From Kondoa subrosea (Eukaryota): 64,000 nt of DNA. Shown here piece after piece: positions 4,001-37,063 of this stretch. The translations under genes were made by a program, and so were the position numbers. The DNA lies in NCBI GenBank assembly GCA_039545335.1, contig BCIN01000006.1, positions 1,306,958-1,370,957 of the forward strand, written 5' to 3'. The notes under the pieces are model-generated. The model was given only the letters and a program-made list of their open reading frames with translations, had not been told where the DNA came from and did no database searches. Position 1 is the stretch's first letter, and each line of letters begins with the position of its first letter.

Positions 4001-4101
4001 GACACACGATTGCTTTGATGAGCGCTATCGTTAAGACTTAGTTTCGGAGCTTCCGCAGCAAGGGATTCCAATGTACCTTTCAAATTGTAGTAGCCTCGCA
4101 T
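1030..4101 (-). CDS. APL4: AP-1 adaptor complex gamma subunit (gamma-adaptin), multi-exon; 3' end approximate
   Basis: Start [24 protein letters not shown]. Motifs [53 protein letters not shown] and QQRAVEY; C-terminal ear domain (NFQAAVPK...LRIRLRVAF). Confidence 0.93.
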
Positions 4102-4317
4102 GGTATTCCTTGTGGAGCACAGGCGTGCTATAAGCTCGATTCGTGCGCGTACGGAATCTCCCTAACAGATAGGCAGTGGTGGTCCTTACGAAGATAACCT
4201 GGTTTGTTTTACAGTAAGCCTGTAATCAGATGACTCCCATGCCGGCTGCCGTGTACAAAGACTTTCTATGCCAGCAATAGCACCGGAGTACATGGATTCG
4301 TATATGTTCTAAGCAAC

Positions 4318-5473
4318 TTACACCCGAAAGTTCATTTTCAACCCTTTCATCTTCCTTGCCTGCAACTTGCTGAGATCCTGTTGGCCAACGTGTACTTTGC
4401 CAACTTTGTCCCCCATCTCATCGACGTCCCAATTTTTGCTGCGTTTCTGGGCCTGTGCACCGCCATCGCCTTTGCTCTTTCTTTTCAAAGTTCTGTTCGC
4501 GCGCTTCCACTGCTCTGAGCTACCTTCCACTGATCGACGGAGGCTGATATCTAGTGCAGGACCGCTGGGTATCAATGTTACGTAAGGCTGACGACCATTC
4601 GAAGTAGATTTCAATAATTTCGTCATGTACACTCTGACGTGAACTGAAGGTAGAGAGGATGCCAATGGTGCTTGTGTTTCGACAACTGGAGATGTCGAAG
4701 TTCCAGTACCTGCTGCAAATTGCATGGCTGGGGCATGACCGACAGAGATGACGTGCTCGAGTCCTTGCAAATCGATTGCATCGGTCGCTTCGCCACGGTA
4801 CAAGTCGAGCAGAAGGGACTTGAGTTGGATATAAAGAGGGTGCGTAGAAAACAATTCGCCAGAAAAGTGAAATAAGGGTTTCTGGCCTACAGCAGGTTTT
4901 CGAGTCTGACAGCAATAGCATATGTCTTAGACGCTCCGCACTAGATTCCAAGGCAATGATAATCTACCTTGTACTCGTCAATGCTGGTGGCTGAGATTAT
5001 GCCAAGTTCCAGCATATCCAGGATTTGATGGTCGAACATTCGAGCTAGGATCAGATTGTTGGGCCGTTTCTTGCTATTCGAGCCGATAATAGCAAAGGAA
5101 GTATCATTCTTTGTCGACCAGAACTCCAATGTACTAGGATCTTGAAATGGCAGTATACCAGCATTGCTTTTTTTAGTGAAAGAGATCGCATGAGGTTTTT
5201 TGAGGAGAAAGAGCTGCGATAGAGCGATATTGATTGTGCTAGAAGTAGAGCTGGATTTGATGAAGAGCGCCGATTTTACATCTTCAACAACCTGCGAACG
5301 ATAATACTTCAGGTAAGCTATTTCAGAACTAGCAACGCCGGTCTACTTTAGGATTGCGAGCTTCCAGAGCTCGTTTGCCTTGTGCATTTTTGGGTTTGCT
5401 GAAAAGGGATAGGGTGCTGAGCTTCAGCTGATCAATTGCAGATGTACTTGGCTGCTCACCTTGTTCGCAGCAT
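4318..5473 (-). CDS. RPF2: Brix-domain ribosome biogenesis protein Rpf2
   Basis: MLRT|SKPKNAQGKRALEAR start; EFWSTKNDTSFAIIGSNSKKRPNNLILARMFDHQILDMLELG; C-terminus DEMGDKVGKVHVGQQDLSKLQARKMKGLK. Confidence 0.92.
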
Positions 5474-5558
5474 CTTACAAGCGCGCGGATCGATTGTATG
5501 CCTATCGTATGACGGTAAAATGCAAATTATCGTTTTTCGCTATCCAACCACCGCACCG

Positions 5559-7745
5559 ATGTCCGACTGCGAGCCAGCGCAGGGACCAAACGCTGCAGAG
5601 CTGCAATTCGCCTTCGCTGCTGCGGAAGAAGAAGCAAGCAGCGACCAAGCCACTGTATCGGATGCTGTAAGTATCAGCATTTGGGGAACCAACATTGTTG
5701 CCTGAATATAAGAGCCCACAGACAAGGCAGCATACCAAAGAGAAGGGCGAGGAAGACAAAGCCACTGCATCCGGTGTCAAAGGGTCGCACAGCAAGGCAT
5801 CGCAGACGGAGTCTGTGCCGAAGCAGGTTATGCAGCATGTAAAGTCTCAAGTACAAGAGGACCACGGACGCTCTGCCGCTAGCAAGCTCACCCCTGAAAT
5901 GTTGGCTGCATTGCTCAAGAAAATCAAGATGGACGAAGTGATTGCGGGTAAGGATGGCCTGAACCGAAAAAACAAAAAGTGAGTCCTCTGTTTCGCAGCA
6001 TTTCTGATCTATAGCGGCTTACGAAGCATTCGAAGAGACATGGCAGACTTCAAGTTTTGGGACACTCAACCGGTTCCAAAATTAGGCAGTAGTGCGGATA
6101 CCATAAAGTACTTTGGTAATTCCTGGCTTACTCTTCTTCAGCCGGGAACGTACAAGACCAGATGATAGAACCGGACAAACTTCCAAGCGAGATTCGGCAA
6201 ATTCCGTACGAGATGCGCGAACCTTACGAGTGGTGTACTGTAGATTTGGACGATGATAAGCAGGTATCTTTGATAGGTATGCTACACAGAATTGGCATAT
6301 CTGACAGCTTAGGACAGCTTCACGAAGTATACCACTTGCTCACGAAGCATTACGTGGAAGATGACGACGCGTCCTTCCGCTTTGACTATTCGGCTGAATT
6401 CATCCGCTGGTATGTTCGATCCGCACTTAGTACAGGTCAATCATAATCAGTGTGCAAGGGCGCTGAAACCACCAGGTTTTATGAAAGATTGGCATGTAGG
6501 CATTCGCGCAAAATCCTCGAAGAAGCTTGTTGCGTTTATCGCTGGCATTCCGATGGAGCTTCGCGTCAGACGCCTGTAGGCTTTATCTCCAGGAGTCGTG
6601 CCCTCACTGAACACCTACCAGGACCAAAAAATGTAGCGAAATCAATTATCTCTGCGTACACAAAAAGCTTAGAGCCAACCGCCTCGCGCCTCTACTGATT
6701 CAAGAAGTGACGCGACGATGTAACTTGGCTGGAATATTTCAGGCTGTGTATACAGCCGGCGTTTTCTTGCCTACACCGGTCTCTCGTTGCCAGTGAGTGT
6801 TTTCGGACTGTGCGCAATGTCTGACTGTTTCCCATACAGGTATTATCACCGATCACTGAATCCTAAGAAGCTAGTTGCCACTGGTTTCACCTCCTTGCCC
6901 CGACATCAAACCATGGCATCTCTGGTCAAAGCAGCTGCCGTACCTTCAAAAACGTCCCTTGTGGGTTTGCGAGAGATGGCTGATCATGACGTTGAGGAAG
7001 TATGTCATCTGCTGAACAAACAATTGAGCCGTTATGATCTAGCTCCGGTCATGACCATCGGAGAGGTGAGGCACAATTTCATTTCTGGAATGGGTCGAGG
7101 GCAAGCTGTGGGCGGGCGGCGGCATGGTCAGGTTACCTGGTCGTATGTGGTTCAAGTACGTACATGATCACTATTAGAGGGTGTTCGCCTACATCACATA
7201 CACAGGATTCGGCTTCAGGAGCCATCACCGACTTTTTTTCCTTTTACCATCTACCTTCTACAGCTATCAAAGCCAATCAGATTGTCGACGCTGCCTATCT
7301 CTTCTATTATGCCACATTGAATACAAGGCTCGTTTCCGCGCGAGATTCGAAGAATGAACTAGCAATGTCTCAAGAACGGCTCAAGCTATTAATACAAGAT
7401 GCTTTGACAGTGGCAAAGAACGCACGTTTCCGATCATGGCATGCTGGGTTGCCTGCTCAATCCTAAACACAGGCCGAATTCGATGTATTCAACGCATTGA
7501 CTCTAATGGATAATAGCTTATTCCTCCGCGATTTACGATTTGGACCAGGTGACGGTTTTTTGCATTAGTGAGTTGTTGATTTGCATCGATCGCGTGGTTG
7601 AAGTCTTGCGACGGGCAGCTACCTTTACAACTGGATTACACGACCTATTCACGGCGGTGACAAAGCGCAGCAGACACAAGACAGCGAGGAGGATTCGACA
7701 GAAGCCCTTAGCCGCGGCTCAGGAGTTGGCCTAGTAATGCTATAA
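5559..7745 (+). CDS. NMT1: Glycylpeptide N-myristoyltransferase, multi-exon
   Basis: [70 protein letters not shown]; ends in the canonical GVGLVML*. Confidence 0.96.
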
Positions 7746-7929
7746 CTTTGGTCCTTCTCGACGAGATCTATCGATAATGAATTGGGAAGCAGGCACTTGC
7801 TTATCAAGCATTTCTGTAGTGACGCATACGAAGGTTGATTATTAGCGTCCTATCAATGAATTCCGGTACATCATGACATCAAACCATTCCCTTTCTTCCC
7901 TCACAGGGATACGCCGGTCTGATCGTAGC

Positions 7930-8402
7930 CTAACCCATTTTGCCCGCAGGGCTTGAAATAGCGCAAATTCAGTTTTATGCGCACTAAGCAAGAACGCTTC
8001 ACGTACTTGACATTCCTGTATTGCGGGTGCTGATCAGCACCGATCACATCAGCAGGAAGAACTACTCACATGCGCCTCTTCTGACCCATAGGGGTAGTGG
8101 AGTTCACGAAGCTAAGAATGAACATCAGAATAACTCTTGTAACTTTCAAGATCATCGTACCGCCTGGACAATAACATTTCGTGAATGTTCAGCTTCATCG
8201 AATGCTGGTAGCTTGTAACGGACCTGTTGTATTTAATTCTCTTCATGGCCCTGCCTTTTGGTTTCTTCTTCTTTTCCTGCGCTTCAACTTTTGGAGTTTG
8301 CGATTTCACCTTGCCTGCAAATATGACCCTTTATTATGGGCCTGTCGAGCAAGTGTAGAGATACTTGCCTGCTCGAGCAAGCGATCCATGTACCTTTCCC
8401 AT
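7930..8402 (-). CDS. RPS30: 40S ribosomal protein S30 (eS30), 6 exons including 3-nt and 9-nt microexons
   Basis: Spliced reading [66 protein letters not shown]. Confidence 0.93.
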
Positions 8403-8824
8403 ATTTTTCGTGGTGCAAGAGAAAGGAGTAGAGACGAAATTTTGCTGGTTCGGTCTTGTCCGTCAATCTATTTCCTAAACCAATAGTCGAAGTTTGAGGA
8501 CTCTGAGGCTTGTGGCGCGCATTCACTGTCCAGCGCCGAGACTAGCAAGAATCCGAATTGCAACTTCGTCAGTCTAGAGCACCCGGAAACAATTAAAGCG
8601 ATGTTGAGCCGGAGCGCAGGCTTGCGCCAGGGGTACTGGGAGTCCGATGATCTCTCTTGGCTCTGCTGCCTGCTCACAAGCTTACGAGACAACGCACACG
8701 CAAGCTCCGACTTCGCTCAAAGACTTTACTGCCATTACAGGTATCGGAGCTGACAACTGACCTGTTTCGAAGCGTTCCGCCTCCGCTGTCATGACTCATA
8801 CCGACTCCGAGTAGTCCCTCCGAG

Positions 8825-10169
8825 ACGCAAGAGCTGTCGCGTGAAGTAACGACAACTGCATTTTCTTCTGGAAATCAGGCTTTACGCACATCAGCCCAGC
8901 TGTCGAGCAATAAGCCACTTCTGGCTGCCGGATAACTCCTTTCGATACAATCTGGCAGTGCTATTGGTGTGATATGCAGCATTAATCAAAGAGGCGTAAT
9001 ATGTGCACGCCTGATTGCGCTAGCGAGCGACAAAATTAATGGTCAACATTACACAATGCTTCCACTGTGCTGGCGTCAATTGTACACGGATGCCAGTATC
9101 TTACTAGGATTTGAGCTTCTCGCCGATGGTGAAAGTGGTGCAAGGGACGAAGACGACTTTCTCTATGGCATTGGTCAATTGGACTCGGCATTGGTCATTG
9201 CAGGAGCACCGGGCGACCACCGCAAGACTTGCATTTTCAGTCTGATCTGTCGTCTGCAAGCATTAATACCGGCCACAGAGATCAAGTTGTTGCCTGTGCT
9301 GGATATCATTTCGCCGAGTACAAGGACACCCTTACCAGCTTCTTCGGATGTTCCTATCTCTTCGGTTACTCTTATACAGCAACTCACACATCTTTCAAGG
9401 CCATTGCTGATTCCGGGAGGTGTTGCGCACTGGCCAGCGCTTGCAAGGTGGAGGGATCTTTCCTACCTCGCTCGTGCAGCTGGTCCAGGTCGAATGGTAC
9501 CGGTCGAAATTGGTCGCGATTACACAAAGGACGGATGGTCGCAAGAAATGAGGCCTTTCACCGAATTCTTATCTTCTCTTTGCAATGTTTCTGCATCTAG
9601 CAAGCAAGAAGTACTATACCTAGCCCAGCACGATCTTTTTCTGCAATTTCCGCAGCTGATGAAGGATATGCTGATTCCGGACTGCGTCTTCACCATTCGA
9701 CCTCAAAGCGCCGTCTATGTTTCGCCCGCGACCAATACAGGTGTTGCCGTTAATGCATGGCTTGGGCCTAAAGGGACCGTTAGTCCAGCGCATACCGATC
9801 CGTACTATAATGCCTACGGTATTTCTCCCGATATGCGCTGTCCGGCAGTAGAGATCTCATTTTGAAGGAATAGCACAAGTAGTTGGCCGCAAACGGGTCT
9901 GGCTAGCCCCGCCGGAAGTGGACATGCGCAACAAAGCTGCAAACAATGAATCGGGAGATTTATTGAATGCACCAAATGCCAGTGTCTTCGGTAATACTTC
10001 GAACATAGACGTCTTCTCCGACGACACGAGCGTAGATGCTTACGGTATGCGCGAGGCTGGAGCTCAAGAGACGGTCTTGCAGCCTGGGGACCTGCTGCTC
10101 ATGCCACCTTTATGGTGGCATGGTATGCAAAGCCTCGACCCATCTTTTTCGGTTAGTCTGTGGTTTTGA
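8825..10169 (+). pseudogene. Second copy of the JmjC (JMJD5/cupin-8-like) gene with a decayed 5' end; might still give an N-truncated product from the internal ATG at 9056
   Basis: 8999-10169 is the reverse complement of 22572-23742 (K vs Q at 9770/22971). 8825-8998 is diverged homology to 23743-23934, with ACG at the start-codon position (8825) and TGA at 8970 in place of TGG. Confidence 0.75.
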
Positions 10170-10452
10170 GGATAGACTGAGCGCATCGGGTAAACTTTGG
10201 AAGGTGAAGTTTGGAAGGAAATATTTTCGAAGACTGGGGGTCAAAGGATGATACTTCGATGCGGAAACATTGATCACGCGAGATCAGTATTGACATTCAC
10301 ACATTGCACTACTACAAATTCTCGATTACGACCGTGCGAAACCGGAAACACCGTAGTTCGCCATCACCCTATTGTACTGGCTGCGGCAGCAGACATGCGT
10401 GAGCTTTCGAAATATTTGCAACTGCAGATGAGCTGACCATGGTTTTGCCGAA

Positions 10453-10641
10453 TCAAGCAATCACACAGACTGTGCCAATGCCACCCGGAGGTCCTGGAGT
10501 GTTACGAGAGACGACACAGACTGTACCAATACCGCCTGGTGGACCTGGAGTGTTACGAGAGACGACACAGACTGTACCAATACCGCCTGGTGGACCTGGA
10601 GTGTTTCTAGGGTCGACGGTGCAAGTAATAGCGGAAGGCAT
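10453..10641 (-). CDS. Lipopeptide mating pheromone precursor with 3 tandem cores (MPSAITCTVDPR-[NTPGPPGGIGTVCVVSR]x2-NTPGPPGGIGTVCVIA*)
   Basis: 62 aa; terminal CAAX (CVIA) and internal CVVS-R motifs. 17-aa repeats differ at synonymous third positions in this frame. Architecture resembles red-yeast RHA-type precursors. Confidence 0.88.
   Translation of the reverse strand: MPSAITCTVDPRNTPGPPGGIGTVCVVSRNTPGPPGGIGTVCVVSRNTPGPPGGIGTVCVIA
10463..10605. repeat. 51-bp tandem repeat (~2.8 units) encoding the pheromone cores
   Basis: Unit acacagactgt(g/a)ccaat...ggagtgttacgagagacg starts at 10463, 10514 and 10565. Confidence 0.95.
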
Positions 10642-12403
10642 GTTCAGCCGAATTCAAAAGGAATGTGAAGGGGCGGTTAGGTGAAGCGTGAGAATATGTG
10701 GATGAAAGCAAGCAAGAAGGTAGGAATTCCCAAGCCTTATACATTTTCGGACAATAGGCCTTTTGTTGCACAAATCAAAAGGCAAAACCGTGACAGACTT
10801 TGACAAAGGAACATAGAGGGCTTTCGTCAGCTCAAGCCCGCTACAGGCACATATAACTACATATAACGGAGGCTCAAGAGGTCAGGTTGGCGTTATTGAG
10901 AGTGCTACTATTGATAGTTGGGGTGGAACAAGTTCATCTGTAATATTACATCCCTGCCCGGAATGATGGGACGGGAATGGCATGCGGTGTAATGCAGGAC
11001 TATGTCACGAAGGTCACCAGTATGGAAGGTATACCTTTGTGAATTTTCAGCACTGCGAATCAAGCAAGATCATTGGGCTTGGTCTTCAGATATATATTTC
11101 TATGTGTAGGGGGAGGCCGACTACGCGGCGAAGCCCAAACCTGCCCCTAAGTATGCAGATATGCGTAGCCAACAGAATATCAATTGCACAACCGTTTCCC
11201 ACTACAAGATGACTGTTCTGCGACTGAATAGGTCAAGGGACAGTATTACCGGGTGATTCGATAAGCGCCACTTGCTCGTCAGATTTTTGCCTCGTACTGC
11301 AGTAGAAGTAGTGTCTCAAAAGCAGATTGAAAGGGCGCATCATACACCGGCGGCTGTAATGAGCATTGTCAGCACGAACATTATTTCCTCGGACTCGGAC
11401 TCTACGCGTTCTGCGCACTCAGCGCTGCGCGTCCTCCTCGATTGTACGCAACGTAAGCCGCTCTTCGCTGAGCAGGGATTTCCCGAAAGAACAGAGAACG
11501 GATGTGGTAGGAGTTAGCAGCACCTGTTGCCCGCAAGAAATATATCGAGTGCCATAGATGTGAACAGAAGTAGCACACGTCTTCTTCTTGTCCGACCTGT
11601 GCCGGGCCTATTCGCGAAAACAGCAGTTCATAGCTCACAATTGATTAGGTTGAGCTCCTAACAACCCATTAATGATGTGAAACCGAAGAAGTTTTGAGCG
11701 GAAGGCAATGGGAACTCGCTTGAATGGGGACTCTGCTGATATCGATAGTCAAGCAAGACAGTTCTGCTGAATGCCTTCTACTTAATCCGCACCCCGAGTG
11801 ATGGTTTATCAGCAAGGAAGCAGCTGATTGGCATTACGTCCATGTGCCAACAAGTGTGCTCTCACACCATTCTCAAAGCAGGTGGCGAGACACTGTCAAG
11901 AGTCGTACTGTTGGTGCTATGATAGGATTGCTGAGCCTGCAGCAGCAGGACACGTCCGAAGCAATGTAATGAAAAGGCAGAAATGATGCCAGAATATAAG
12001 CGTGGCAAAGGAAACAAGAGTCGATAGGTTTGCAGAGATGACCAAAGATATGATTCAATGGCCCTGGTGGCCTGGACGAAAGGCCAAACTTTGCCAAAGC
12101 GGCAGAAGGCGACATGATTCACGGTGATTGATAGCGAAAGCCTGAGAGGAATACTCCAGCTCCGGCGGATTTGTATCGGATCAATGTTGCCGTTGGTATC
12201 AGCAGTTAGCGACTGCATAGCATCACGAGTCATAGCTCGGATCAAATGCTCGAGTTGATTATTGGCTGAATTAGTAAGCATCGGAAGAAGACGGGTCAGG
12301 TGTCAAGTGGTCTTTCCGAGAAGACACGAGGACATTTTTTCCCTTAAGACCCTAATCTATACAGGTTTGGGAACAAGGCCAGTGGCGCAAATATCGAGCG
12401 GCT

Positions 12404-13270
12404 TTATATTAGGCCTGCAGTCTGTAAATATTGAACAAGTCTTTTGACGGACTCCTCCACCGAGCTTTCAGTCGTATCAAGATAAACTTCCGGGGATGTA
12501 GGAGATTCATATGGAGCCGAAATGCCTGTGAAATCTAGGGTAGGCGACCATAAGCCCATAAAGCAAGGAAAGGACATCAAAGTGACCTTGAATTTCGCCA
12601 GCCCGAGCTTTTTTATACAACCCTTTCGGATCGCGTTTCTCGGCCTCCTCCAAAGAAGCATGGACAAATACCTAAACCAATCATAAGGCATGAATGACTA
12701 TGAATTGATTCAAGTTACTTCGATGAACGCCAGACCAGCACGTTCATGCATATCACGAGCACTTTGTCTATCTGCAGTGTAGGGCGATATGAATGCCGTT
12801 ATGGCAATCGTACAGCTTGACGCAAATAATTTGGCTACCTGTTGAACTTTTGAGCCCTGAAGCCTTCGAGGAACCACATTTAGCTCACCTCACCAATTCG
12901 GCGGATATTCTCAGTGCGATCTTTTTCGCTGAATTTGAGGTCTCTGTTCAGGCCAAGCCGTACATTATCGCCATCCAGTCTAAAGGCCCGTTTGCCCATT
13001 TGCAATAATGCTGCTTCCAACGCGACGCCTATAGTAGATTTTCCAGAAGCTATAATAGCCAAATCAGTAGTGTAGGGTCCGAAAAAGTCATGCAAGTGAC
13101 CCGAAAGACCAGTTAGCCATACGGTTGCACCCTTTTGACCTGTCAACCGAATGCGATCGGAATCGGAGACCGTAGAAGCGCTACAGCAGATGCTTTACTG
13201 GTGCGAATACATGGGTGGCTTAAGCTTACTGCCACGTCAGGTTGTTGATGTCGGAAAGATGCGAAGCCAT
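12404..13270 (-). CDS. MET14: Adenylyl-sulfate (APS) kinase
   Basis: [22 protein letters not shown]-loop; [43 protein letters not shown]. Confidence 0.95.
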
Positions 13271-13426
13271 TGTCGGTTGTCACGGATAGATCAGCGTCGA
13301 AGCAAAATTTGTGAGACTTTGCGTTCATGAATGATAGATCTGCTAGTCTTACTATCACAAAGAACTGTCGAAAGTTTCTGTCGAAAGTCTCTATTACTCT
13401 AATTTCTAAGTTGGCACCGCGCTAGA

Positions 13427-16135
13427 TCAATCCACATCCATGTTCAAAGCTTCCGGCTCCAGAGGGATATGAGGTTCAGCGGTATCCTCCGTTTGCTGTT
13501 GGTCAGGGGTAGCTGTTTTAGATTCGCTTGATGCCGAAGCTGTTGGCGTTGGCTCAGCCGATTTGGGCAGTTGCGGAGCTTTTTGGTTGAAGATGGGAGT
13601 GCAGAAGCTGAGTACCGCGCGCTAAGCACGAATTTCTCAGCATGATCCAACACTCACAATATAATTTCGTCGCGTCTTTTGAGGACTTCAGCACTGGTAA
13701 AGCTAGCTTTGGACGATTTCGCTCGTTCCGCCTGACGTGCACTTTCATCATCTAGCCATTTCTCCACCGTAGCGATTTTCTCGACGACAGATTGCTTATC
13801 CACCTGAGTATGTCTTGTGAGCTTCGAGAACATTTTAAGAGCAAGAACATACATCGGAAATGTGCGTGTACCTGGCCTCGTTGGCCGTGGCTTTGGAATA
13901 GTATTTAGACAGAGTTTCGCGAAGGCGCTTTGCTGCCGCTGGTCTGTCTTGATTTTCTTTGTAGCGGAATGCGGCGGGCCCTCCAACAACCTTAAGCTGA
14001 TCCAGCTTCTCCACATACGCTGATTTGGTGGCATCCTCGCCCTATGTACGGAGTCTTAGATACGGAGATGACCCAACAAAGAAAAACCGACTGACTGCCT
14101 CCGAGTATAACCAATCTTCGGCTTCACTCAACAAGCGCTTCAAAGTTTCCTTTTCGTCTGCTACCATGAACCCAGCATACGCGCCATCCACCTTGTCTCT
14201 TGCGTCGTAGATGTACTCCTCTAAGGCATTTTTCCTGTCCTGGAACATTCACGCCGTCAGAGCGCATTGGAGTCCCCTAAACGAAACAAACCTCAGTTTC
14301 GGCTACCAGTCGGTCGGTGGAGTGCATAGCTCCTTCTTGCTCTCTCAATTGCTCCACCTGCGATGCTTCCAGCGCAGCTTGCCCGGTAATGCACACAAGC
14401 TCTGTTCGCTTGACTGTTTTATTGGTGGTTGAATCGGATGCCTCAACATCCTCAGATGCTAATGTTTCCATCTCTTCGTATAAAGTAGCGCTATCAAAAG
14501 CGAATACACCACTGGGGTTTAGACGTGTCTTGATTTTCACTGTAGCAGGCTGTCCTGCATTCGAAGACTTGACCCCTTTGACAGTGATACTGCCTATCCA
14601 GGAGTCAACATTTCCAGGCAATGAAGCATCACTTGAATAACGGGCTTCCAACTTAAAGACATCATGGCGCTGGAGAGTCAACATCTTTGTTGAGGGTACG
14701 CTGTTGCCTTTTTGGAATAGTCGAAGCTCAGTGTCCGAATCTTCTGGGACTTTTTCCCACACAATGTCAATTGGGTAATGCTGGATGTCGGTAAAGGAAA
14801 ATTCCCTGACACGAAAGACGGGCGAGAGTGTTGCGCAAGCTAATGTAGCGCCTCTTGCAACGGCTTCATCTTGATTCGTAGTGACTGAAGTGGGTCGGCC
14901 AAAAAAGTCTTGAATACGAGTCTTCAGTGCCGGAACTCGAGTTGTACCGCCTATAAGTTCAATAGCGTCTATGTCCTCCTTGACTAAGCCAGACTCTTCG
15001 AGTGCTTGTTGCAAAGGCAGCGTAGTGCGCTCGAGAAAAGGTGCCACCAGCTCTTCCAGCTTTTCCCGAGTTAGAGACGAAGCAGCATCTATATCGTCCA
15101 TAATGCTTTCGACATTTAGAGGAGCAGAGATGTTGGCAGATAAGACTTTCTTCAACTTCTCGACCGCAGTATACAAGCGAAAGATTGCTTTCTTGTTTGA
15201 CATCACATCGATCTTGTATTTGGTCCGGAACTCTTGGGCAAAGTATTCGACCAAGGCGAAATCTAAATCACGGCCGCCAAAGTGTCGATCATATGCCGCA
15301 GCTTTGATAACGACTTGAGCTTTGGAATAAGCGGCTATGGTGACGGAATAATCGGAATGCCCAATGTCCACAAAAGCGACATAACGTGGCCTTTCTGTAC
15401 TTTCCGGAAGATCCGTTTTGGTGATGCCGTATCCAAGTGCAGTTGCGGTTCCGTCATTGATGAGGCGCAGAGCGTTCAGACCAGCAATATCGGCCGCATT
15501 CAGTACAGCTTGACGCTGGATATTGGTATACCAGCCAGGAACGGCGATGACCACATCATTGACGGCTGCTTTGGATTCCGTCTGGGCAATATCGCGTAGC
15601 TTACCCAGATACATAGCATACAGTTGGGTAGCAGTGAATGTATGTTGTTCGCCTAGATAATTTACCTGCGGCAGGACAGCGTCAGTACCTAAATGAAAGC
15701 TCCATTATGTCAAGTACCTCGACACCGACGGTGCCAGCTATATCAACCAGTTGCGCATTGATGAATTTTTGCTCGTAGGTTTGCAGATCCGAATCTTGGA
15801 AGGTGCGACCTATGAGACGCTTGAGAGAACCAATGGTATTCCGATAATTCGAGGTTTCTTGTGTTTTGGCGGATTCACCCATCGTCCGATTACGGGAGCC
15901 AAAAGACACCAAGGATCTGTACTGAATGTTCAACAAAACACTACCGAAGAGGAATAAGACTGACGGTGTTGCTCTGTTCGATGTTTCATTCACGATGATA
16001 TCAATGCCTCTGTTACGTGCCAGGCCAATTTTTGATTGTAGATTACCAATGTCGAGACCAATTACTGATGCTATATACGAGGGCGGCCTAAGCAGAGTGT
16101 ACATTTTGGTAAGGCGAATCTTATTGCTTACTCAT
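13427..16135 (-). CDS. SSE1: Hsp110/Sse1 (Hsp88) family chaperone
   Basis: SVIGLDIGN, RGIDIIVNETSNRATPS, IELIGGTTRVP, DRKNALEEYIYDARDK; ends MDVD*. Confidence 0.95.
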
Positions 16136-18279
16136 GTTTAGCTAGCGAGGCTGTCCGTTTCAAAAAAAGCTGTTGGCAGCAGTGGCACAACGAACGAACC
16201 TTGTTGCGCGGGTTGCGGGTCAAAAGCAAGAAAGGTGATGCAAAAAATTTGCCCCATCATAGCAAAGTAGTACCCATGCAGCCACACCTTTCTTCGTGGC
16301 TCATACTGTTCGTACAGCATGGGTGACTTCCAGATTCCTAGTGAATGCCACTTCCAGCCCGAAAGCATACATATAACAAGTTGCAGTGGCAGATATAGGT
16401 GCCTGCGCAGGTGTGCACGAGCAATCCAAAAGGGCTTTCGCGAACGCGTCTTGGTCAGTCTGGCTCAGTACGGACGCGCCCAGATGCAACAACTCGATCA
16501 GGGTTCGTGCAAGACTCCTGGTCCTCCCCGTCATGATCAATGTCAGGCGTTCCATTTGGCTGCCTCAATGCCTCAACAGGTTATGTCCAAGCTCTGCGAC
16601 TCTAGATATCTTATGCGGAACGATGAAATTCTCAAGTGATCCGAATTTGAAATCGCTGCTGAAATCAATTTTTCGGCAGCTGGGGACGTAGGCGATGCAA
16701 GTTGCAACGTGAGCTTGCTACTTTTTGTTGCTGCGTCCTTTCATAAGTACTAGCACTCTATCTGACTATTTGAGCACTACTGTAGCTCTTGTGGCTGTCT
16801 GCCGTAATCTGCGTAGCGTTGGCCCCCTTATGTAAGCCTTTTCTTTCCAGACGCAACTTGGCGGGGCAGGCTAATATGTCCATAGTCGATCGCAACTAAT
16901 ATTGCTCGAAATCCCGTCTGGGTCCGCCGAAGAGCGAACGACCCGGAGAGTAGTGATGGTACGCGCTGCTGACCATTTCATTGTCAATCGGTCATGTACA
17001 TAAGCAAGTGTGTAGTTCATAATTCTCAGCCCCGTTTATTGAGCCATGCGCAGCGTTGACAGGTCTATCGCAATGTCTATCTGTTTCTCTCAGATAATCC
17101 GGTACATCACCATCCGGCTGTTACTATCGACGCATCACTTCCAAAAGCTCCAGCTCAGAGGAGCTAGCTGTTGCCCAAAGCGCAACCTGGTCATGTCACG
17201 TACTATAATCTTGAAAGGTCTTACAAAAAATGTCATTTAACCTGAACGATCCTGACCCGTGCCTGACAGCCGATTGGATTTTCCATCATCTGCACCCTCA
17301 ACCAGCAGTATTAATACTACTTCGATCGAAGGAAATATGCAGCATCTGGCTTAGATGGATATTTTTGGCGTCGAAAGAGTACGGCAGTAACGAAACTTCA
17401 CAATTGACTAGAGCGACTTTTCAGGGCTCGTTTCGGTACCACCAAGGTGAGTGACCGCGCGGCTTGAGATTGGCGGGCTGTGTACGGAATAACACCCCAT
17501 GCAAGCAGCCGGATCACGCTTTAAGCAAAGTATTCACCATGGAAGCCGATCAACTTGCTATAAGTGGACGGAATCATTGCTCAAAACGGGGATAGCCACG
17601 TTTACGCCGAGAAATCTACTCGAGGAACAGGCAGTTTCGGCAAGCTGTTTGCAGGTAGTACATCAGATAGACCAACTGTAAGATAGACCGACTGTATGCT
17701 TCAGCTAGGAGTGCAAAAGTGCAGCTTTGACTGAGTGGCTTCCTTATGTTGGCCAATTGCTACATTCAAGCTTCCTGATGGTGAGCCGGAACACTTAGGT
17801 AGAGCAGTCAGTGCCATGCTACAAGATCCGCACAAAGGGCTGACCCAGGGGAACATAGTGATCAGGCAAGACGACGGATCGAAAGACTGAGCTGTACAGT
17901 TGGATGCATAGTGCCAACGCGCAACAAGAGAGTGCATGTGTTTCAGCGGTAACACATCGTGAAATTGAATTGCACTGTGAAAGGATTGCACTGTGTTTGG
18001 GTCGACGAACGACAGTGTCGAAGCGCTTGTGCAGACGATATTTGCTATATGAATCAGAACGCTCGACCACTTCGCAATTCTCATTATTGCGGAGGTTTCC
18101 AAACAAACCTGGAAAATATCATAAAGAACCCGGAATTCAGGAGGTCGCGCAGTGTACGTGAGAGTCAAGACTAGTTGATTCCATGATCCCAATTGCTACA
18201 CCGCGGGGACGAATATGTAACGGGGTTCTCTGTATCCGTGCAAGTCAACAGTTGATGAGACAGGCATCGCTCATACACC

Positions 18280-21214
18280 CTATGCTTGTGTCCCTGTCGC
18301 AGGACTCGATATAGCGAGCCTTGGGTTCTCGCAACGGATCCCCATTGCAGTAGAAGCTTTCCTTTGACCGGAGCTCAGTTGTGGCTCGCACTCTGCCGAA
18401 GGTCGCAGCAACTTACAAGCCTTGTCCTTGAACACTCCTGTTGAGTCTTTTGAGTCTTTGGCCGCCTTGCGAGCAAGCAGTTTTCCGATCCATTCTTTGG
18501 CGAAATGTCGAATCTTTCTCTCTTTTTCCATAGATAGGCTGTCGTATTCTGCATCCGCAAACGCAACAGACTTAGTCTCCTTGTCGACTAGCAACATGGT
18601 AAGCTAAAGCAAAACATCAGACCACTGCAGCTTCGTGTGAATGGCCGTACTTCTTGTGCCCGCCGCTTAAACTCGTCTTTGTTCAACTGATCTCTGGCAT
18701 ACTTTGTCATTGCCTTCACGACAAGAGGTGAGAATAACCTCATAGCCTTCTTCTCTTTGGACATGGGCAACTTCTCTTTCTTCGTTCGATTCACGACCTC
18801 ACTCTGTGGTTTTGATCTCTCATGCTCTAAAATTGAATTGGCTGCATTTGTTTTCGAAAGACCTAGCGCCTCTGCTTCGGCTGAGGCCCTGGCGATTATG
18901 TCTTCGAGATCTAATCCTGGTTTGCGGAGCTTTGCAAGATAAGCTTGATGAATTGCTTCAGCTTCCTTCTGGGATGGCGGCGTCCAGGTCGTGGTCCCGG
19001 TACCAATATGATAGTAGTAACGAGCGCCGTGTGCCGTTTCCGCAGATTGCCATCCCTCGTAGATCGAGATTTCGCTCGCAGCTGCAGATCTAGTTGGAGC
19101 CGCAGCAGCATAATTCGCATTCGGAGATGTGTGATAGTCATCCAGCTTTGCCCTTTTGATCGAAAAGACAGGCGACGCTAAAGCATCGGGTCCATGTTTG
19201 CGTCCGTCGCTACCGAGTAAATTCTGTCGAAAGACATTTGAGCACACGAGTAGCACATTACAGAATACATGAGAACCGACCTGCACGTCGCGCGGAATCC
19301 GGTAAGCCAGTCGGAGCTCGCTCCAATCTGCAATAAGTGCTCTAGCTAAGTCCTTCGTTTCGGTCTCGAATGTGCCCTGGATAATGCGCGCAACGATCGA
19401 CTCTACAGATGTGCTTGATATCTTATTACGACTGATCAGCGGCCATTTTTGCATAATTTGAAGCACGGAAGCAACGACTTCGCTTTGATCGTCCATGTAT
19501 TCTTCCAATAACATACCCATCAGACTGAAACCACGCAAACGCATAAGTTGACTATGCACTGTTGTGTCGGTCGTAATGAGCAGCCGTGTAAGTAGCTTGA
19601 GAAGGATGCGCTTTGTTGATGCCGCCTGACGCACGGCTGCAATGACTTTTGGTACTTCTTCCAATTGAATTGGTCGCATAACAGGCTAAAAGATTTGAGA
19701 CACATGCATGCAGATCAGCCAATCTATGACTCACATTGAAGTCATTATCATCAAGGCTCCTGCTTTTCTTGCGCTTATTGCCTCGGAGCTCTAGCAATTC
19801 CACCTCGTCCGTAATTCCCAATGCTATTCAACTCCTTAGCAGAGTGAGCTGTCACTTAATGAGCACTGACCGTCAAGGTACAAATCATCGAGAAAACCAA
19901 TATCGGTCTGAGTTTTGCCACCAATGAAGCCGACACAGTTTGACTCCCCACAAAAGCATTCTTGTGCATCGTGACTTTGTTTGACAGTATGTTAGAGGGA
20001 GCGCGATTTCGGCAATACAATTCGTAGACATACCCATAGCGGTCGACGTTATAGTTGAAGGTCAGTTCTTCACCACGTTGGATCTTCCGCTTGGTGAAGA
20101 TGCCCATGCGAAGTCTTCTGCCCACCACCCATTTCGCAACATAACAATTAGGATTACAAGAATGATTGAGAAAGCGGCCTTTGCCGCCTCGTTTCGTTGC
20201 GTCAATGAACTGCCAGAGTTTTGCTTCAGCGCCATACGTCGCTTGGTAGATTACTCATACTTCATCCTTCTGCAAAGCCATAAAGTAGAAGTGGCGGATG
20301 CCCTCCTCGTAGTACTCAGTCATGCGTTTGACAAAGTTTTTGTGCCCAATGACTTCGCCAATGTACTCGTACACCAAAGTATCGCTGTAATATATTCAAT
20401 GAGTGAATATTTGATGGAAACGACTGATTGTGACCTACGCGGGTAAAGTCATTTCAGACATAATGCCGTAGCCTTTGCGAGGTGTTTGAACAATTCTTAT
20501 GGGTGCGTATTGTTGCTGCTGGAGCCTTACAACAGCGCCATCTCAAGTTCCGCACGCTTGGGAAGAAAGCTGGTACACTTACCGTTGATTCTGACAATGT
20601 GTCTGACAGTTACATTCGTTCTGAGGGCATTCCACTTGAGTCAGCCGATTTATACAGCCGCTGCTGTCGCCGCAAGCAACATTTGGACCATCCATTTCTG
20701 TGATAACTTAAGCCAATCACCAGGAATACCGGAGTCGCAAGCACCACACCTGGCTCATAGATGCAGTCGCATTGGAAGGAATCGTCTTGTTGCTTAGCTA
20801 GGCCAAGAGACTTGTTCTGGTAGGTGTTGAACTGTATTTCAATAAACTCGCTCATTGCCTGAGCAGATCTCTTAGTCATAACTCTGATCTGGGAAGTATA
20901 TAGCACACTTCTGTTCCCGCATCGGGAAGCTCCAGTATTGTTCGAACACCGGCCCACGACTTCATGTCATCTTCGGACGATTGCACTTCCTTTTGCACTT
21001 GATCTATTTTGTTTTGGGCGGTCTTTTGCTCTCTAGCACTATGGTCCTGACTTGTTCGTGGGCGAGTCAGAATGGCACGTTGGGATCTTCTAGGTGCAGG
21101 TGTATTCGCTACTGCCTCATTAGTCTCTAAAACACCAGAAAAGGCATCTTCGGCAGCAGGCGTGCAGACCGGCAAGAGGGTAACACTTTGTGGTACATTA
21201 TAAGCCGCAGACAT
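18280..21214 (-). CDS. SET2: Histone H3K36 methyltransferase (AWS-SET-postSET, WW, SRI), multi-exon
   Basis: [40 protein letters not shown] domain [30 protein letters not shown]-like [14 protein letters not shown]. Confidence 0.93.
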
Positions 21215-21974
21215 GGTCGTTGGTTGACCCTAAATAACAAATATCGTCAATACTCGATGGTTTAGAATGGCGATACGAATCGAACGAACGGACATTCAAA
21301 TAATGATTCGCCCGTACTGTATCTCAGGCCGGCACAGATGTGTAATATCGGATCCAGTTGAAGTTTGGGATCAAATTCCAGATTGGCGCTAAGAGTTGTA
21401 GGGAGGCAGAGTGCAGACGCCTGAATGTTGCGCTGATAGTATCGCACAAGGTGGATCGCTACAGCAGATATTTATTGTTGTTGTTGTCCTGTTCTCAGGC
21501 TGTAAAGCTCGTGATTTGGTCAGGTTCCAGTGGTGGTGGTCAAATGCATCGAAGCGATGTTTATGGATTCGCGAGTTTTCGTAACTCATGAGTACATAAG
21601 GCTGCATAAGGCTCTGGGCCAGAGGGAAAGAATCGTTTCTGATTACCACAGCCTGAGCACTCTAGTAGCGATCAGACAAATGCCACCTACAGCCTGAGCT
21701 ATGTGGTTCTATTATCTGTCTTTTAGAATCATTCTTGTGTCAAGCTCGGATCTAGCCTCTGATAGAGTACGTGGCTGACTTCCGTGACATAGTCCTGCAT
21801 TACACCGCATGCCATTCCCGTCCCATCATTCCGGGCAGGGATGTAATATTACAGATGAACTTGTTCCACCCCAACTATCAATAGTAGCACTCTCAATAAC
21901 GCCAACCTGACCTCTTGAGCCTCCGTTATATGTAGTTATATGTGCCTGTAGCGGGCTTGAGCTGACGAAAGCCC

Positions 21975-22060
21975 TCTATGTTCCTTTGTCAAAGTCTGTC
22001 ACGGTTTTGCCTTTTGATTTGTGCAACAAAAGGCCTATTGTCCGAAAATGTATAAGGCTT
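21975..22060 (+). promoter_or_regulatory. Putative pheromone-gene promoter: HMG-box-like sites and a TATA box (mirrored at ~10732-10817)
   Basis: TTCCTTTGTC at 21981, AACAAAAGG at 22025, CTATTGTCC at 22035, and TATAAG at 22051, 100 bp upstream of the ATG at 22151. Confidence 0.45.
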
Positions 22061-22150
22061 GGGAATTCCTACCTTCTTGCTTGCTTTCATCCACATATTC
22101 TCACGCTTCACCTAACCGCCCCTTCACATTCCTTTTGAATTCGGCTGAAC

Positions 22151-22288
22151 ATGCCTTCCGCTATTACTTGCACCGTCGACCCTAGAAATACTCCAGGTCC
22201 ACCAGGCGGTATTGGTACAGTCTGTGTCGTCTCTCGTAACACTCCAGGACCTCCGGGTGGCATTGGCACAGTCTGTGTGATTGCTTGA
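22151..22288 (+). CDS. Lipopeptide mating pheromone precursor with 2 tandem cores (MPSAITCTVDPRNTPGPPGGIGTVCVVSRNTPGPPGGIGTVCVIA*)
   Basis: 45-aa ORF read directly (below the ORF-track cut-off); terminal CAAX CVIA; paralog of 10453-10641. Confidence 0.88.
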   Translation: MPSAITCTVDPRNTPGPPGGIGTVCVVSRNTPGPPGGIGTVCVIA

Positions 22289-22571
22289 TTCGGCAAAACC
22301 ATGGTCAGCTCATCTGCAGTTGCAAATATTTCGAAAGCTCACGCATGTCTGCTGCCGCAGCCAGTACAATAGGGTGATGGCGAACTACGGTGTTTCCGGT
22401 TTCGCACGGTCGTAATCGAGAATTTGTAGTAGTGCAATGTGTGAATGTCAATACTGATCTCGCGTGATCAATGTTTCCGCATCGAAGTATCATCCTTTGA
22501 CCCCCAGTCTTCGAAAATATTTCCTTCCAAACTTCACCTTCCAAAGTTTACCCGATGCGCTCAGTCTATCC

Positions 22572-23934
22572 TCAAAACCACAGACTAACCGAAAAAGATG
22601 GGTCGAGGCTTTGCATACCATGCCACCATAAAGGTGGCATGAGCAGCAGGTCCCCAGGCTGCAAGACCGTCTCTTGAGCTCCAGCCTCGCGCATACCGTA
22701 AGCATCTACGCTCGTGTCGTCGGAGAAGACGTCTATGTTCGAAGTATTACCGAAGACACTGGCATTTGGTGCATTCAATAAATCTCCCGATTCATTGTTT
22801 GCAGCTTTGTTGCGCATGTCCACTTCCGGCGGGGCTAGCCAGACCCGTTTGCGGCCAACTACTTGTGCTATTCCTTCAAAATGAGATCTCTACTGCCGGA
22901 CAGCGCATATCGGGAGAAATACCGTAGGCATTATAGTACGGATCGGTATGCGCTGGACTAACGGTCCCTTGAGGCCCAAGCCATGCATTAACGGCAACAC
23001 CTGTATTGGTCGCGGGCGAAACATAGACGGCGCTTTGAGGTCGAATGGTGAAGACGCAGTCCGGAATCAGCATATCCTTCATCAGCTGCGGAAATTGCAG
23101 AAAAAGATCGTGCTGGGCTAGGTATAGTACTTCTTGCTTGCTAGATGCAGAAACATTGCAAAGAGAAGATAAGAATTCGGTGAAAGGCCTCATTTCTTGC
23201 GACCATCCGTCCTTTGTGTAATCGCGACCAATTTCGACCGGTACCATTCGACCTGGACCAGCTGCACGAGCGAGGTAGGAAAGATCCCTCCACCTTGCAA
23301 GCGCTGGCCAGTGCGCAACACCTCCCGGAATCAGCAATGGCCTTGAAAGATGTGTGAGTTGCTGTATAAGAGTAACCGAAGAGATAGGAACATCCGAAGA
23401 AGCTGGTAAGGGTGTCCTTGTACTCGGCGAAATGATATCCAGCACAGGCAACAACTTGATCTCTGTGGCCGGTATTAATGCTTGCAGACGACAGATCAGA
23501 CTGAAAATGCAAGTCTTGCGGTGGTCGCCCGGTGCTCCTGCAATGACCAATGCCGAGTCCAATTGACCAATGCCATAGAGAAAGTCGTCTTCGTCCCTTG
23601 CACCACTTTCACCATCGGCGAGAAGCTCAAATCCTAGTAAGATACTGGCATCCGTGTACAATTGACGCCAGCACAGTGGAAGCATTGTGTAATGTTGACC
23701 ATTAATTTTGTCGCTCGCTAGCGCAATCAGGCGTGCACATATGGCTTTGGTTTTGCGGCTTTGACGCAATGCTGCATACCACAGAGACAATACTGCGAGA
23801 CCACATTGAGAGAAGTCAGCCGCTGGTAGTAGACAGCATGAACTTATTGCGTATGCTAGCGATTGAGATGTAGTACTACCTGATTCCGCGGAGAGGAAAG
23901 CAGCCATCGTTGCTTTGTGTGATGACTCTTGCAT
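22572..23934 (-). CDS. JmjC-domain 2-oxoglutarate/Fe(II) oxygenase (JMJD5/KDM8-like, cupin-8); one intron at 22868-22922
   Basis: WPALARW, VPVEIGRDYT, YLAQHDLFLQFPQL, NAWLGPQGTVSPAHTDPYYN (HxD), QVVGRKRVWL, LQPGDLLLMPPLWWHGMQSL (distal His), FSVSLWF*. Confidence 0.9.
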
Positions 23935-24063: not shown

Positions 24064-25693
24064 ATGTCGACACAGTCGACTCCTGAAAAGGTGAAAAAAC
24101 GTGAGTTATCTCGAGGAAAAGCTCCTGCCTTTTTAGCAATGGGCTCACGTACATTATGCAGCTCTTCCTTTCGCCTGCAAGTGACTGCCAGTACTTCTGC
24201 ATATGCGAATGGACTCATGATTAGGAGAACAGATCAATTTGCAGCCGGTGCCATCGCGGGCGTGACAGAACTGTTATGTCTATATCCATTAGGTCGGTTT
24301 GTCAAGTGAAAGCAGTTCAATTGGAAACTAATGCTATGCAGATGTTGTGCGTCCAAGTGACTGCAGTAGCTTGCAACATTAAGATGCCTCTGCAGGTCAA
24401 GACAAGAATCCAACTGCAGACTAAGTCTTCTGGGACGAATTACACTGGCATGGTTGATTGTGAGTATATTTGTCTTCTGTTCCGACTCCTGTATGCTGAC
24501 ACAGGGCATTGAGGTTTTCGCCAAATAATTGCTCAGGAAGGGTATGTCTCACGCTGAATTTCCGCCGATTAGCCTTTTGCTTCTTATGCTTCAGGTTTGG
24601 GCGCCTCTATCGCGGTCTTGTGCCGCCTCTCATGCTAGAAGCCCCCAAACGAGCTGTTAAATTCTCCGCTAATGGGTCAAATCTCCAATAATTGCCGATT
24701 TTACACAGCTGATCCCGTTCTTTAGCTTCTGGGGAAATACATATAAAGAAGTATTCAACGCTCCTGCGATGACTCAGAACCTGTCTATCTTGACCGGATG
24801 CTCAGCTGGGGCGACCGAAGCAGTGGTGGTTGTTCCATTTGAGTCTGTCTTTTCGGTGACATCAACATACTATGTGTATCTTACAAAATCCTTTCCAGAC
24901 TTGTCAAGATTCGTTTACAAGACAAGGCTAGTACGTACAAAGGACCCTTGGACGTCGTAACGAGGATAGTGGCTTCAGATGGTCTGCTCGGTTTATACGC
25001 TGGATTGGAATCGACTATGTGGCGGCACATCATGTGGAGTGAGTTTTGTTCACAGTTGCTGTCAGGCCCATGTCCTAATGTTTCTAATCAAGATGGTGGA
25101 TACTTTGGTTGTATTTTCCAGGTCAAGGCAATGTTGCCCAAAGCCACTGTGCGTGTAGTGTCACAGTGAATGTTAGAGGGTCTGATGGATATTTGCGCTG
25201 TGGAAGACTCCTTCTGGCGAATGTCAGTACCTACAGTTTGTGCATACATGAAATTTTTAACGTTACCTTTTGAATAGTAAGTAATAACTTCGTTTCTGGA
25301 AGCGTGGGCGGATTCATTGGTACCGTGAGTCGCTGCCCCTGCGTTCCATCGGCTGCCTTGCTAAAATATACCCAACCTTTTTTTCCCCACGCAGGTATTG
25401 AATACTCCATGTACGAGCCGAGCAAGTCATGACGTCTGACAGCTGACAAGGCTTTAGTCGACGTGATCAAATCGCGCGTGCAGAATTCTCCAAAGGTGGC
25501 CGGACATCCGCCTAAGTACAATTGGACGCTACCATCTTTGCTGATCGTGGCACGCGAAGAGGGATTTGCAGCTCTGTACAAGGGCTTTCTGCCTAAAGTC
25601 CTGAGATTAGCCCCAGGAGGCGGCGTACTGCTATTGGTAGTGGAAGTTGTCGGAGGCTACTTTAGAACGAAACTTGGGGCAGAGTATCTCTAG
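24064..25693 (+). CDS. ODC1: Mitochondrial 2-oxodicarboxylate carrier, many small exons
   Basis: PLPFAYQFAAGAIAGVTELLCLYPLDVVKTRIQLQ; RLYRGLVPPLMLEAPKRAVKF; LYKGFLPKVLRLAPGGGVLLLV. Confidence 0.9.
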
Positions 25694-25724
25694 AATATTA
25701 CTACAATGCCTTGCATAAATGCAG

Positions 25725-26401
25725 CTATTTCTTTTTCCCTTCTTTACGCCGCAGTGTTTCCTTGTTAACGAATACACCCTTGGCCGGCATGTGAGCATTT
25801 CTGTCCGATTGCAAAGAGAACAGCTAACCTTTCCGTTGTACGGCTCTGGTCGTCGATGATGCCGGATGTCGCTGGCGAACTGCGCAACCTTGTCCTTCTC
25901 GATGCCCGTGAGCAGTATCTCATTCGATCCCCTCAGACTACATTCCACGCCTTCAGGTATTTGCATCATAATTGGGTTGGGGAAACCAAGCTTGATGTTC
26001 AAGATGCGTTCGCCATCAAACCCGGCCCTGTAGCCTACCCCCTTGAGCGTGACTGTCGAAGTATGACCAGTATTCACTCCTGTTATAGCATTTGCTATTA
26101 GCGTCCTGTATAGACCCCACTGCTCCCGTTGAGGCTTCGCCGTTGAATTGAAGATATTCACAGCCAATTGAGTCTCGTTGGTCCACCTTAATGTAAGGAA
26201 TTTCGGTACTGTTACTTGAACCTGACCACGAGGACCAGCGATTGAGACGGCATGTGCAGGTGACTCGGCAATTACTGTGCCAGCTGGAACAAATATAGAT
26301 GTGCTGCCAATATGTGATTCGCGATAGGCTTGGACAAATTGCCTGGCCGATAGACGACCTCGCCAGTTTGCAATGGCTTGTTCTGCCTTATATGCTAACA
26401 T
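25725..26401 (-). CDS. MRPL6: Mitochondrial ribosomal protein L6 (uL6m, 'RibL6')
   Basis: SHIGSTSI, WGLYRTLIANAITGV, LKGVGYRA, RRPEPYNGK|GVFVNKETLRRKEGKKK*. Confidence 0.92.
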
Positions 26402-26772
26402 TGCGCAGCAGTGAGATGCTGCTCGGAACTTGAAGCGGTCTGATTAAATGACTTTGGCAGTTTGGAAGGAAGGCCTGTCGGTACCGTACTCGGTAAGGCA
26501 AGTGATACACTAAGGCTAATTCCTGTATTTTGCCTGTGCCCCTTCACCAGCTTCACTCTAAGCCGTGTCAATGCCCTGTTCTGAAAGGGAGTCCTCGAAC
26601 TCGTTCTGTTTGGCACGTAGCCGATGTATAGGTCATTTATCCTCATAACACACGAAGAAGCACAGTGTACGAGGAACAGTATGAATACAAAGAATACATT
26701 GCATTGAACGCCGATGGTGGTCAGCCATTCCAGCGCCTTTGCGTCTAAAATGCAAATAGGATATCGATAATA

Positions 26773-29376
<2,604 letters not shown>

Positions 29377-34868: not shown

Positions 34869-34999
34869 CAAGTCACCAGTGTAGACGTCTTAGCAAGTAA
34901 GCAACTCTGCTGTATGGCTGACAGGTTGGACGTTCGTGACGAATCCGTGTCGACTGAACCTCGAGTAGAATTTGTGTTCTCTGTCATCTTAAGACAGCC

Positions 35000-37017: not shown

Positions 37018-37063
37018 CACAGCAACATCCATGTAGTCCTGTTTACCATGTGTAATGACGAGT

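Follow-up and report, generated by a model that had tools for sequence, protein, structure and literature searches.

In Cryptococcus, each MAT allele holds three pheromone genes in near-identical, often inverted repeats of 0.5-5 kb that surround a few unrelated genes, and these amplicons are kept by intra-allelic gene conversion (PMC526376, PMC11844451); inversion loops and repair by conversion have been discussed for such pheromone repeats (PMC11844451). Conserved inverted repeats also contain the A1 pheromone genes of S. salmonicolor and R. toruloides (PMC3236058). Flip/flop mating-type switching needs a silenced end as well as two MAT loci of opposite type (PMC10013875, PMC8709784), and staggered breaks can give inverted duplications of up to ~1.9 kb at inversion breakpoints, with one copy decaying (Ranz et al. 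2007, PMC1885836). Here, we describe a 2-kb inverted repeat carrying pheromone genes in the fungus Kondoa subrosea, within a stretch of 64,000 nucleotides (the window; assembly GCA_039545335.1, contig BCIN01000006.1, equal to C6:1306958-1370957 of an 18.9-Mb genome in 27 scaffolds). Positions are those of the window unless a scaffold is named.

The locus is very probably an old, conversion-maintained pheromone amplicon of a Pucciniomycotina pheromone/receptor (P/R) locus. What is new are the outer flanks of the repeat, which are still 68% alike and have lost the start of the left JMJD5-like gene, and a third copy, together with a broken SET2 gene, on scaffold C4.

Identity of the arms, the decayed flank, and the third copy

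Self-BLAST and pairwise alignment confirmed the claim of an initial annotation, made from the letters alone, that the two arms are reverse complements, and carried out the self-comparison it had proposed; the arms extend slightly past the bounds it gave, to 11016 and 21776 (Table 1). Outside one 51-bp unit they are 99.9% identical, with 2 internal substitutions: A9770 against G22971, a Lys/Gln difference in the JmjC sequence, and G10603 against the complementary base at 22189, which is silent (Asn). The 51-bp tandem unit is present once more on the left, giving 3 pheromone cores there and 2 on the right. These were precisely the differences already listed, and just outside the earlier bounds two extra mismatches (11010 and 11012) fall within the innermost 7 bp of the arm. 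The non-coding arm DNA, whose match in the promoter had also been pointed out, is free of differences over 699 bases (intron, 0/48; 3' interval, 0/283; pheromone promoter, 0/368). Within the 64-kb window, the repeat search found no second long inverted repeat.

Identity jumps at ~9000, from ~60-74% per 50-bp bin outside the arm to 100% inside. Homology extends ~240 bp past the outer arm end and covers the start region of the JmjC gene: 8751-8991 and 23991-23759 match in 150 of the 221 aligned columns (68%), with a score of 82, compared with at most 44 in 200 shuffles. The Jukes-Cantor distance is 0.42 in the outer flank and 0.001 in the arm, a difference of ~400-fold. The N-terminus of the JmjC protein is encoded in the right flank, where ATGs stand at 23934 and 23907; on the left, the corresponding ATG is gone. 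Of 120 homologues, 42 give alignments that reach at least 60 nt past the arm end on the right, compared with 3 of 120 on the left. Judged by these alignments, the duplication once spanned the whole JmjC gene, and the left copy is probably a pseudogene or an N-truncated form. The earlier placement of JmjC genes in both arms is accurate for the intact right gene and overlooked the 5' decay of the left one. Because the outer flanks are still 68% alike, the duplication appears to be old and the arms to have been re-homogenised later. No homology was found where it was sought between the inner flanks, between the spacer halves, or outward of ~8750. The residue at the Lys/Gln site varies among the 120 homologues (A, 28; G, 18; K, 16; Q, 10; R, 8; E, 7; other, 6; no motif, 27), so we infer no functional difference between the arm copies.

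A third copy, invisible from the window alone and hence missed by the initial annotation, which had seen two copies that are both real, lies on scaffold C4 within a duplicate of a 6.6-kb block of the window. The C4 duplicate contains SET2, the promoter, a four-core pheromone gene of 79 aa (C4:29751-29990) and a truncated 3' part of the JmjC gene, and its pheromone gene lies 21 kb from a STE3 receptor gene. The C4 SET2 copy is frameshifted by a 1-bp insertion in a coding exon, which is present in the reads too. Compared with the window, the C4 copy differs by 10.4%, 2.2%, 0% (0/697), 8.9%, 1.2% and 1.5% in successive tracts, and the longest identical run, 697 bp, compares with at most 313 bp in 5000 permutations. 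In Logan contigs from two runs of one sample (X1 and X2), possibly the source of the assembly, a read-derived contig covers the 697-bp tract at ~2x depth, with 0 differences in X1 and one in X2. Across the 1545 columns of the three-way comparison, 30 sites are C4-only, 1 is right-only (9770) and 2, at the edge, are left-only, a count that omits site 10603, where C4 has an N. We read the step in identity at the arm edge and the mosaic on C4 as patterns left by gene conversion. The cautious suggestion that the pheromone repeat converts is thereby upheld, within one genome, by the step from 68% to 100% and by the patchy C4 divergence.

The three precursors (62, 45 and 79 aa) all end in CVIA and encode the same 13-residue core peptide. 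Their repeating unit of 17 aa consists of the 13-aa Pro/Gly-rich core and a VVSR spacer, with 3, 2 and 4 cores in the left, right and C4 genes, respectively. Such precursors are processed by cleavage after Arg and prenylation of Cys. Within each arm, the pheromone gene lies at the inner end and is transcribed convergently with the JmjC sequence. Several identical pheromone genes in near-identical repeats of 0.5-5 kb, some of them inverted, are what distinguishes an amplicon, and this arrangement is found here. Searches of Pfam and Atlas with the pheromone precursor gave no family match. An in-frame protein search, in which 5 candidates were scored, returned these three as the only pheromone genes, plus one weak match containing stops, and no further repeat-type precursor came up in a scan of short open reading frames (ORFs) ending in CAAX across the window and ~270 kb of additional DNA. 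In the C4 gene, the third core uses a distinct set of synonymous codons, the last core in all copies differs from the internal ones, and the leader includes a degenerate Cys-x-x-x-x-Arg unit. A comparison of promoter words with the DNA upstream of STE3 gave nothing beyond a mild excess of [AT]CAAA[AG] (5 in 375 bp).

The Logan contigs were compared with 4000-21775. Contig depth in X1/X2 is 143/56 in unique DNA, 283/118 on the outer arm (8999-9519) and 403/146 on the inner arm, a pattern that fits two outer-arm and three inner-arm copies, although contig depth does not translate strictly into copy number and Logan contigs drop variants. A single contig passes from the left flank into the arm, and the right flank is carried by a loose contig end at 8999; at the inner junctions, the spacer begins in one contig from the left inner end, and 11016 is connected with 21775 by a joint that changes strand. 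Site 10603 in X1 has A at depth 311/438, a ~1:2 split, as three copies predict. Single-copy depth across the arm had been named beforehand as the sign of misassembly; the depth on the arm is ~2x and all junctions are present, which makes misassembly unlikely. Short-read contigs cannot phase across a 2-kb arm, and the orientation of the spacer is unreadable from them.

Gene content and setting of the locus

The features of the window are collected in Table 1. Gene names such as MET14, NMT1, KAP95 and MYO2 are labels given to the Pfam families found. Matches to Pfam and to Protein Data Bank (PDB) entries agree with the earlier assignment of MET14, SSE1 and SET2 to the spacer. Two spacer stretches of ~1.4 kb each (11017-12400 and 16200-17700) gave no Pfam match in the scanned segments and may be non-coding or hold short-exon genes. 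Just beyond the left arm lies a small, intron-containing gene for ribosomal protein S30 (8115-8330) that is absent from the long-ORF lists.

Table 1. Coordinates of the repeat, its genes and neighbouring features in the window
Feature	Positions	Strand	Size	Description
Left arm of inverted repeat	8999-11016		2018 bp	Self-BLAST, pairwise alignment; depth ~2x outer, ~3x inner
Right arm of inverted repeat	21776-23742		1967 bp	Self-BLAST, pairwise alignment
Spacer	11017-21775		10,759 bp	Housekeeping genes only; its two ends share no homology
Decayed outer remnant, former 5' end of JMJD5-like gene	8751-8991	+		Start codon lost; in-frame stop just before 8936
Left JMJD5/KDM8-like JmjC copy	8999-10169	+		5'-decayed; first in-frame ATG 9056; intron ~9820-9867; Cupin_8/JmjC match
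Pheromone precursor, left	10453-10641	-	62 aa	12-aa leader, three 13-aa cores ending in Cys, C-terminal CVIA (CAAX)
Pheromone promoter region, left	10642-11016	-		Identical between arms over 10642-11009
Adenylylsulphate (APS) kinase, MET14 type	12407-13194	-		Exon segments; PF01583
Hsp110 SSE1, main exon segments	14280-16131	-		PF00012; PDB best match SSE1, E 8e-135
SET2 H3K36 methyltransferase	17704-21229	-		SET and WW domains; PDB H3K36 methyltransferases; divergent from right pheromone gene
Block with SET2, pheromone gene and 3' JmjC	16704-23326	+	6.6 kb	Duplicated at C4:24314-31027; ~2x depth, separate diverged contigs
Pheromone precursor, right	22151-22288	+	45 aa	Same 13-aa core, twice; ends in CVIA
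JMJD5/KDM8-like gene, right, intact	22572-23934	-	~435 aa	One intron; H-x-D...H metal ligands; 5' end beyond arm
Mitochondrial carrier, ribosomal L6 and PH-PBD-kinase (STE20 type) genes	24843-29385			Pfam; red-yeast P/R markers
RPAC1-type polymerase subunit, multi-RRM (MRD1 type) and ABC1 genes	33832-38348			Further P/R-linked markers
Class V myosin (MYO2 type)	61893-64000	+		IQ and DIL domains just past window end

By its gene content, the window is assigned to the P/R mating locus of a Pucciniomycotina fungus. The STE20-type kinase gene lies at most 4 kb from the right arm, and the start of C4 carries genes for L18A, importin beta, STE3 (50.7-51.8 kb) and ApoO; a Rhodotorula P/R gene set that includes these C6 and C4 markers is listed in bioRxiv 10.1101/2025.09.11.675505. 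C6 ends in 3496 bp that, except for two N, are identical to the stretch with which C4 begins, so the two scaffolds probably adjoin and would then form a locus of ~125 kb. Among the receptor homologues (150 hits in a representative search, with names looked up for 20), the best-ranking named ones belong to Mixia, Atractiella and Rhodosporidiobolus, which places the fungus in the Pucciniomycotina. A divergently transcribed pair of a homeodomain and a KN-homeobox gene (HD1/HD2-like), at positions 4130-6664 of the stretch C11:48000-57999, is likely to be the homeodomain (HD) mating locus on a separate scaffold.

Three more STE3-family genes were observed outside the P/R region (C4:1439329-1440384; C1:2745580-2746218, largely intronless; and C1:2428923-2429234), with no pheromone gene beside them in the DNA examined. 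The one on C4 is 1.4 Mb away from the linked STE3, among unrelated genes, with no repeat-type CAAX gene within 60 kb. Both C4 receptors score higher against R. lusitaniae receptors and a protein named 'a2' than against the S. johnsonii receptor, and R. lusitaniae is represented by A2 only (PMC3236058). A tree of the 100-residue STE3 exon (45 rows, excluding unnamed hits below rank 38 and hits covering fewer than 80 residues) gave support too weak for assignment to A1 or A2.

A cluster of copia and long terminal repeat (LTR) fragments occupies the C6/C4 junction, ~3-23 kb past the window and ~46 kb beyond the right arm. Its relatives cluster at a single site on each of C1, C2, C3 and C10, and C13 and C14 have them at their starts, a centromere-like pattern; since P/R genes flank the cluster on both sides the mating locus may straddle a centromere; linkage of P/R to the centromere is known in Microbotryum (PMC6581054). 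The cluster is also flanked by a second long inverted repeat of at least 4.7 kb and 99.3% identity (C6:1374253-1378942 and C4:1-4713), with NCA2 sequence in both arms. A further partial duplicate within the locus is a MutS-family gene fragment (59014-59546) that is 89% alike to a fuller gene at C4:58748-59282. When metagenomes were scanned with the JmjC alignment, the 80 loci recovered showed no synteny with 29 marker segments of the window and C4, except for a 32% kinase match in 2, and no repeat-type CAAX gene.

Proposed origin of the repeat and possible inversion of the spacer

The most probable course of events begins with an old inverted duplication, in which the left site would have received from the right a copy of the pheromone gene with its promoter and of the entire JMJD5-like gene, presumably when a staggered-break inversion or some comparable repair took place. 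Divergence would have followed, with intrachromosomal gene conversion between the arms keeping 2 kb near-identical while the 5' end of the left JMJD5 copy, outside the converted tract, decayed. A second duplication would have placed SET2, the pheromone gene and the 3' part of the JmjC gene on C4 near STE3, where conversion seems to be less frequent. This yields three genes that together carry nine copies of one predicted lipopeptide core, whose number per gene (2, 3 or 4) may vary by slippage or unequal conversion in the 51-bp array. The likely benefit, going by the literature, would be a higher pheromone dose and repair of pheromone genes where allelic recombination is absent. A crossover during conversion would invert the spacer, with neutral effect, and occasional flipping is plausible.

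Several observations weigh against this account. The left/right pattern is explained equally well by one long recent conversion as by repeated ones, and with one genome at hand the homogenisation is seen within a single genome, not across strains. The two read sets derive from a single sample, from which the assembly itself may have been made; a contig of 3x depth over 9490-10515 lacks the C4 differences of the assembly and the 9770 difference, so these sites rest on the assembly. The overlap of C6 and C4 sits inside a repeat, and the linkage of the window's pheromone copies to STE3 depends on it. It is possible, too, that a genome-wide tendency to inverted duplication, of which the NCA2-bearing repeat would be another instance, accounts for the pheromone repeat in part, or even more than selection on pheromone does.

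Among the alternatives, an artefact in which a single real copy was placed twice, or a collapse inflated the identity, is extremely improbable: this is a short-read scaffold assembly with N runs nearby and an ambiguous base in the C4 pheromone copy, but both runs have ~2x depth on the outer arm and ~3x on the inner arm, separate contigs lead from the arm to each outer flank and to each end of the spacer, and the split at site 10603 in X1 matches three copies. A recent single duplication, with arms alike only through youth, would agree with 99.9% identity and only 2 internal substitutions; the 68% homology that continues ~240 bp beyond the outer end is unexpected if the duplication ended at 8999 (barring an unrelated older duplication at the same spot), and the C4 copy carries tracts of several ages, which leaves this explanation very unlikely. 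A neutral flip/flop inversion polymorphism, in which crossovers re-invert the 10.8-kb spacer on an evolutionary timescale and strains sharing a mating type come to differ in its orientation, is compatible with the conversion-maintained amplicon, and we take it seriously while leaning somewhat away from it. Homologous crossover between inverted arms inverts the segment they enclose, and near-identical 2-kb inverted arms with signs of recombination are present. Inversion breakpoints lie at inverted pheromone genes among Cryptococcus strains of one P/R type (PMC6561019), and over evolutionary time the FF region of Saccharomyces re-inverts by way of its homogenised 4-kb arms (PMC9731477). Nothing observed here points directly to a second orientation, however, and the three-way sites can be accounted for with no flip and hold no trace of a past one in 1545 columns. 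The FF region remained unchanged in ~53,800 mitoses and 950 meioses (PMC9731477), so flipping within a culture is unlikely here even if strains differ, and a literature search that covered few subscription papers returned no report of a pheromone repeat flipping in culture.

A flip would change neither gene content nor any mating determinant: the promoters are identical, the peptides are the same and the right flank retains the intact start of the JmjC gene, and the spacer holds housekeeping genes while the HD pair is on another scaffold. Most of the arm lies outside the pheromone gene, so a crossover would usually move each pheromone copy with its own side of the spacer. The initial annotation's idea that recombination between the arms could swap the 2-core and 3-core alleles therefore loses most of its meaning, with identical promoters and one 13-residue core; its judgement that true switching is unsupported was sound, as all copies give the same peptide and the spacer contains no STE3 or homeodomain gene. 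A flip/flop or other programmed mating-type switch, as in Ogataea and Komagataella, is in fact hardly credible. An inverted repeat does lie inside a mating locus, with a centromere-like retroelement cluster ~46 kb beyond its right arm and three other STE3-family genes in the genome; against this, the three pheromone genes give one peptide and no other was found in the protein search or the CAAX scan, the receptor and homeodomain genes lie outside the spacer (the HD1/HD2-like pair on C11), both arms sit amid housekeeping genes, and the second C4 STE3, without a repeat-type CAAX gene within 60 kb, scores a2-ward like the linked STE3. A homothallic reading by way of that second receptor would be without any pheromone in support. 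A combined reading, in which the P/R locus straddles the centromere and its three amplicons generate orientation isomers at appreciable frequency, is likewise very unlikely. Were this so, recombination of the left with the right arm would flip the 10.8-kb spacer, that of the left arm with the C4 copy would flip a pericentric segment of ~100 kb with STE20, MYO2 and the centromere-like cluster, and a basidiomycete flip/flop would reshuffle a mating supergene within a clone, possibly changing pheromone dose or receptor linkage.

Comparison with known systems

The old, conversion-maintained amplicon proposed here would extend to another Pucciniomycotina lineage a Y-palindrome-like preservation of pheromone genes that is already known, and would not constitute a new switching system. 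It resembles flip/flop switching in having an inverted repeat at a mating locus, but no opposite determinants are flanked and both arms adjoin housekeeping genes. In comparison with the inversion-breakpoint duplicates of Ranz et al. 2007, which average 88% identity and decay, most of the arm here is held at 99.9% (PMC1885836). The FF region on Saccharomyces chromosome XIV is also a gene-bearing, homogenised inverted repeat of sex-related genes with unrelated genes between its arms, near a centromere; both orientations are documented across strains there, whereas one genome is available here (PMC9731477). Within-species inversion of pheromone amplicons has been inferred in papers by comparing strains.

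The red yeasts (Sporidiobolales) share with this locus multi-copy, tandem-repeat CAAX precursors of the RHA type and inverted repeats that flank rearranged modules (PMC3236058), as well as the P/R set of STE20, KAP95, RIBL6, RPAC1, RIBL18AE, APO, MITCARR1, ABC1 and MRD1 (bioRxiv 10.1101/2025.09.11.675505). In contrast to RHA, the Pro/Gly-rich core is different and the arms are larger and carry a JMJD5 gene, and the locus seems to extend over ~125 kb around the centromere-like retroelement cluster. The likeness to the inverted, homogenised pheromone genes of Cryptococcus MAT, proposed at the outset, holds up in the signs of conversion at the arms and on C4. There, one amplicon reaches into the 3' part of IKS1, as the repeats here reach into JmjC and SET2, and STE20 and MYO2 are linked to P/R as well (PMC526376). 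Kondoa subrosea, by contrast, belongs to another subphylum, its precursors are tandem and multi-core, and its HD pair is on a separate scaffold. Where it also departs from Cryptococcus is in the decayed flank, which provides a within-genome record of the age of the duplication: identity rises abruptly from 68% to 100% where the converted tract begins, and a third copy adds tracts of different ages.

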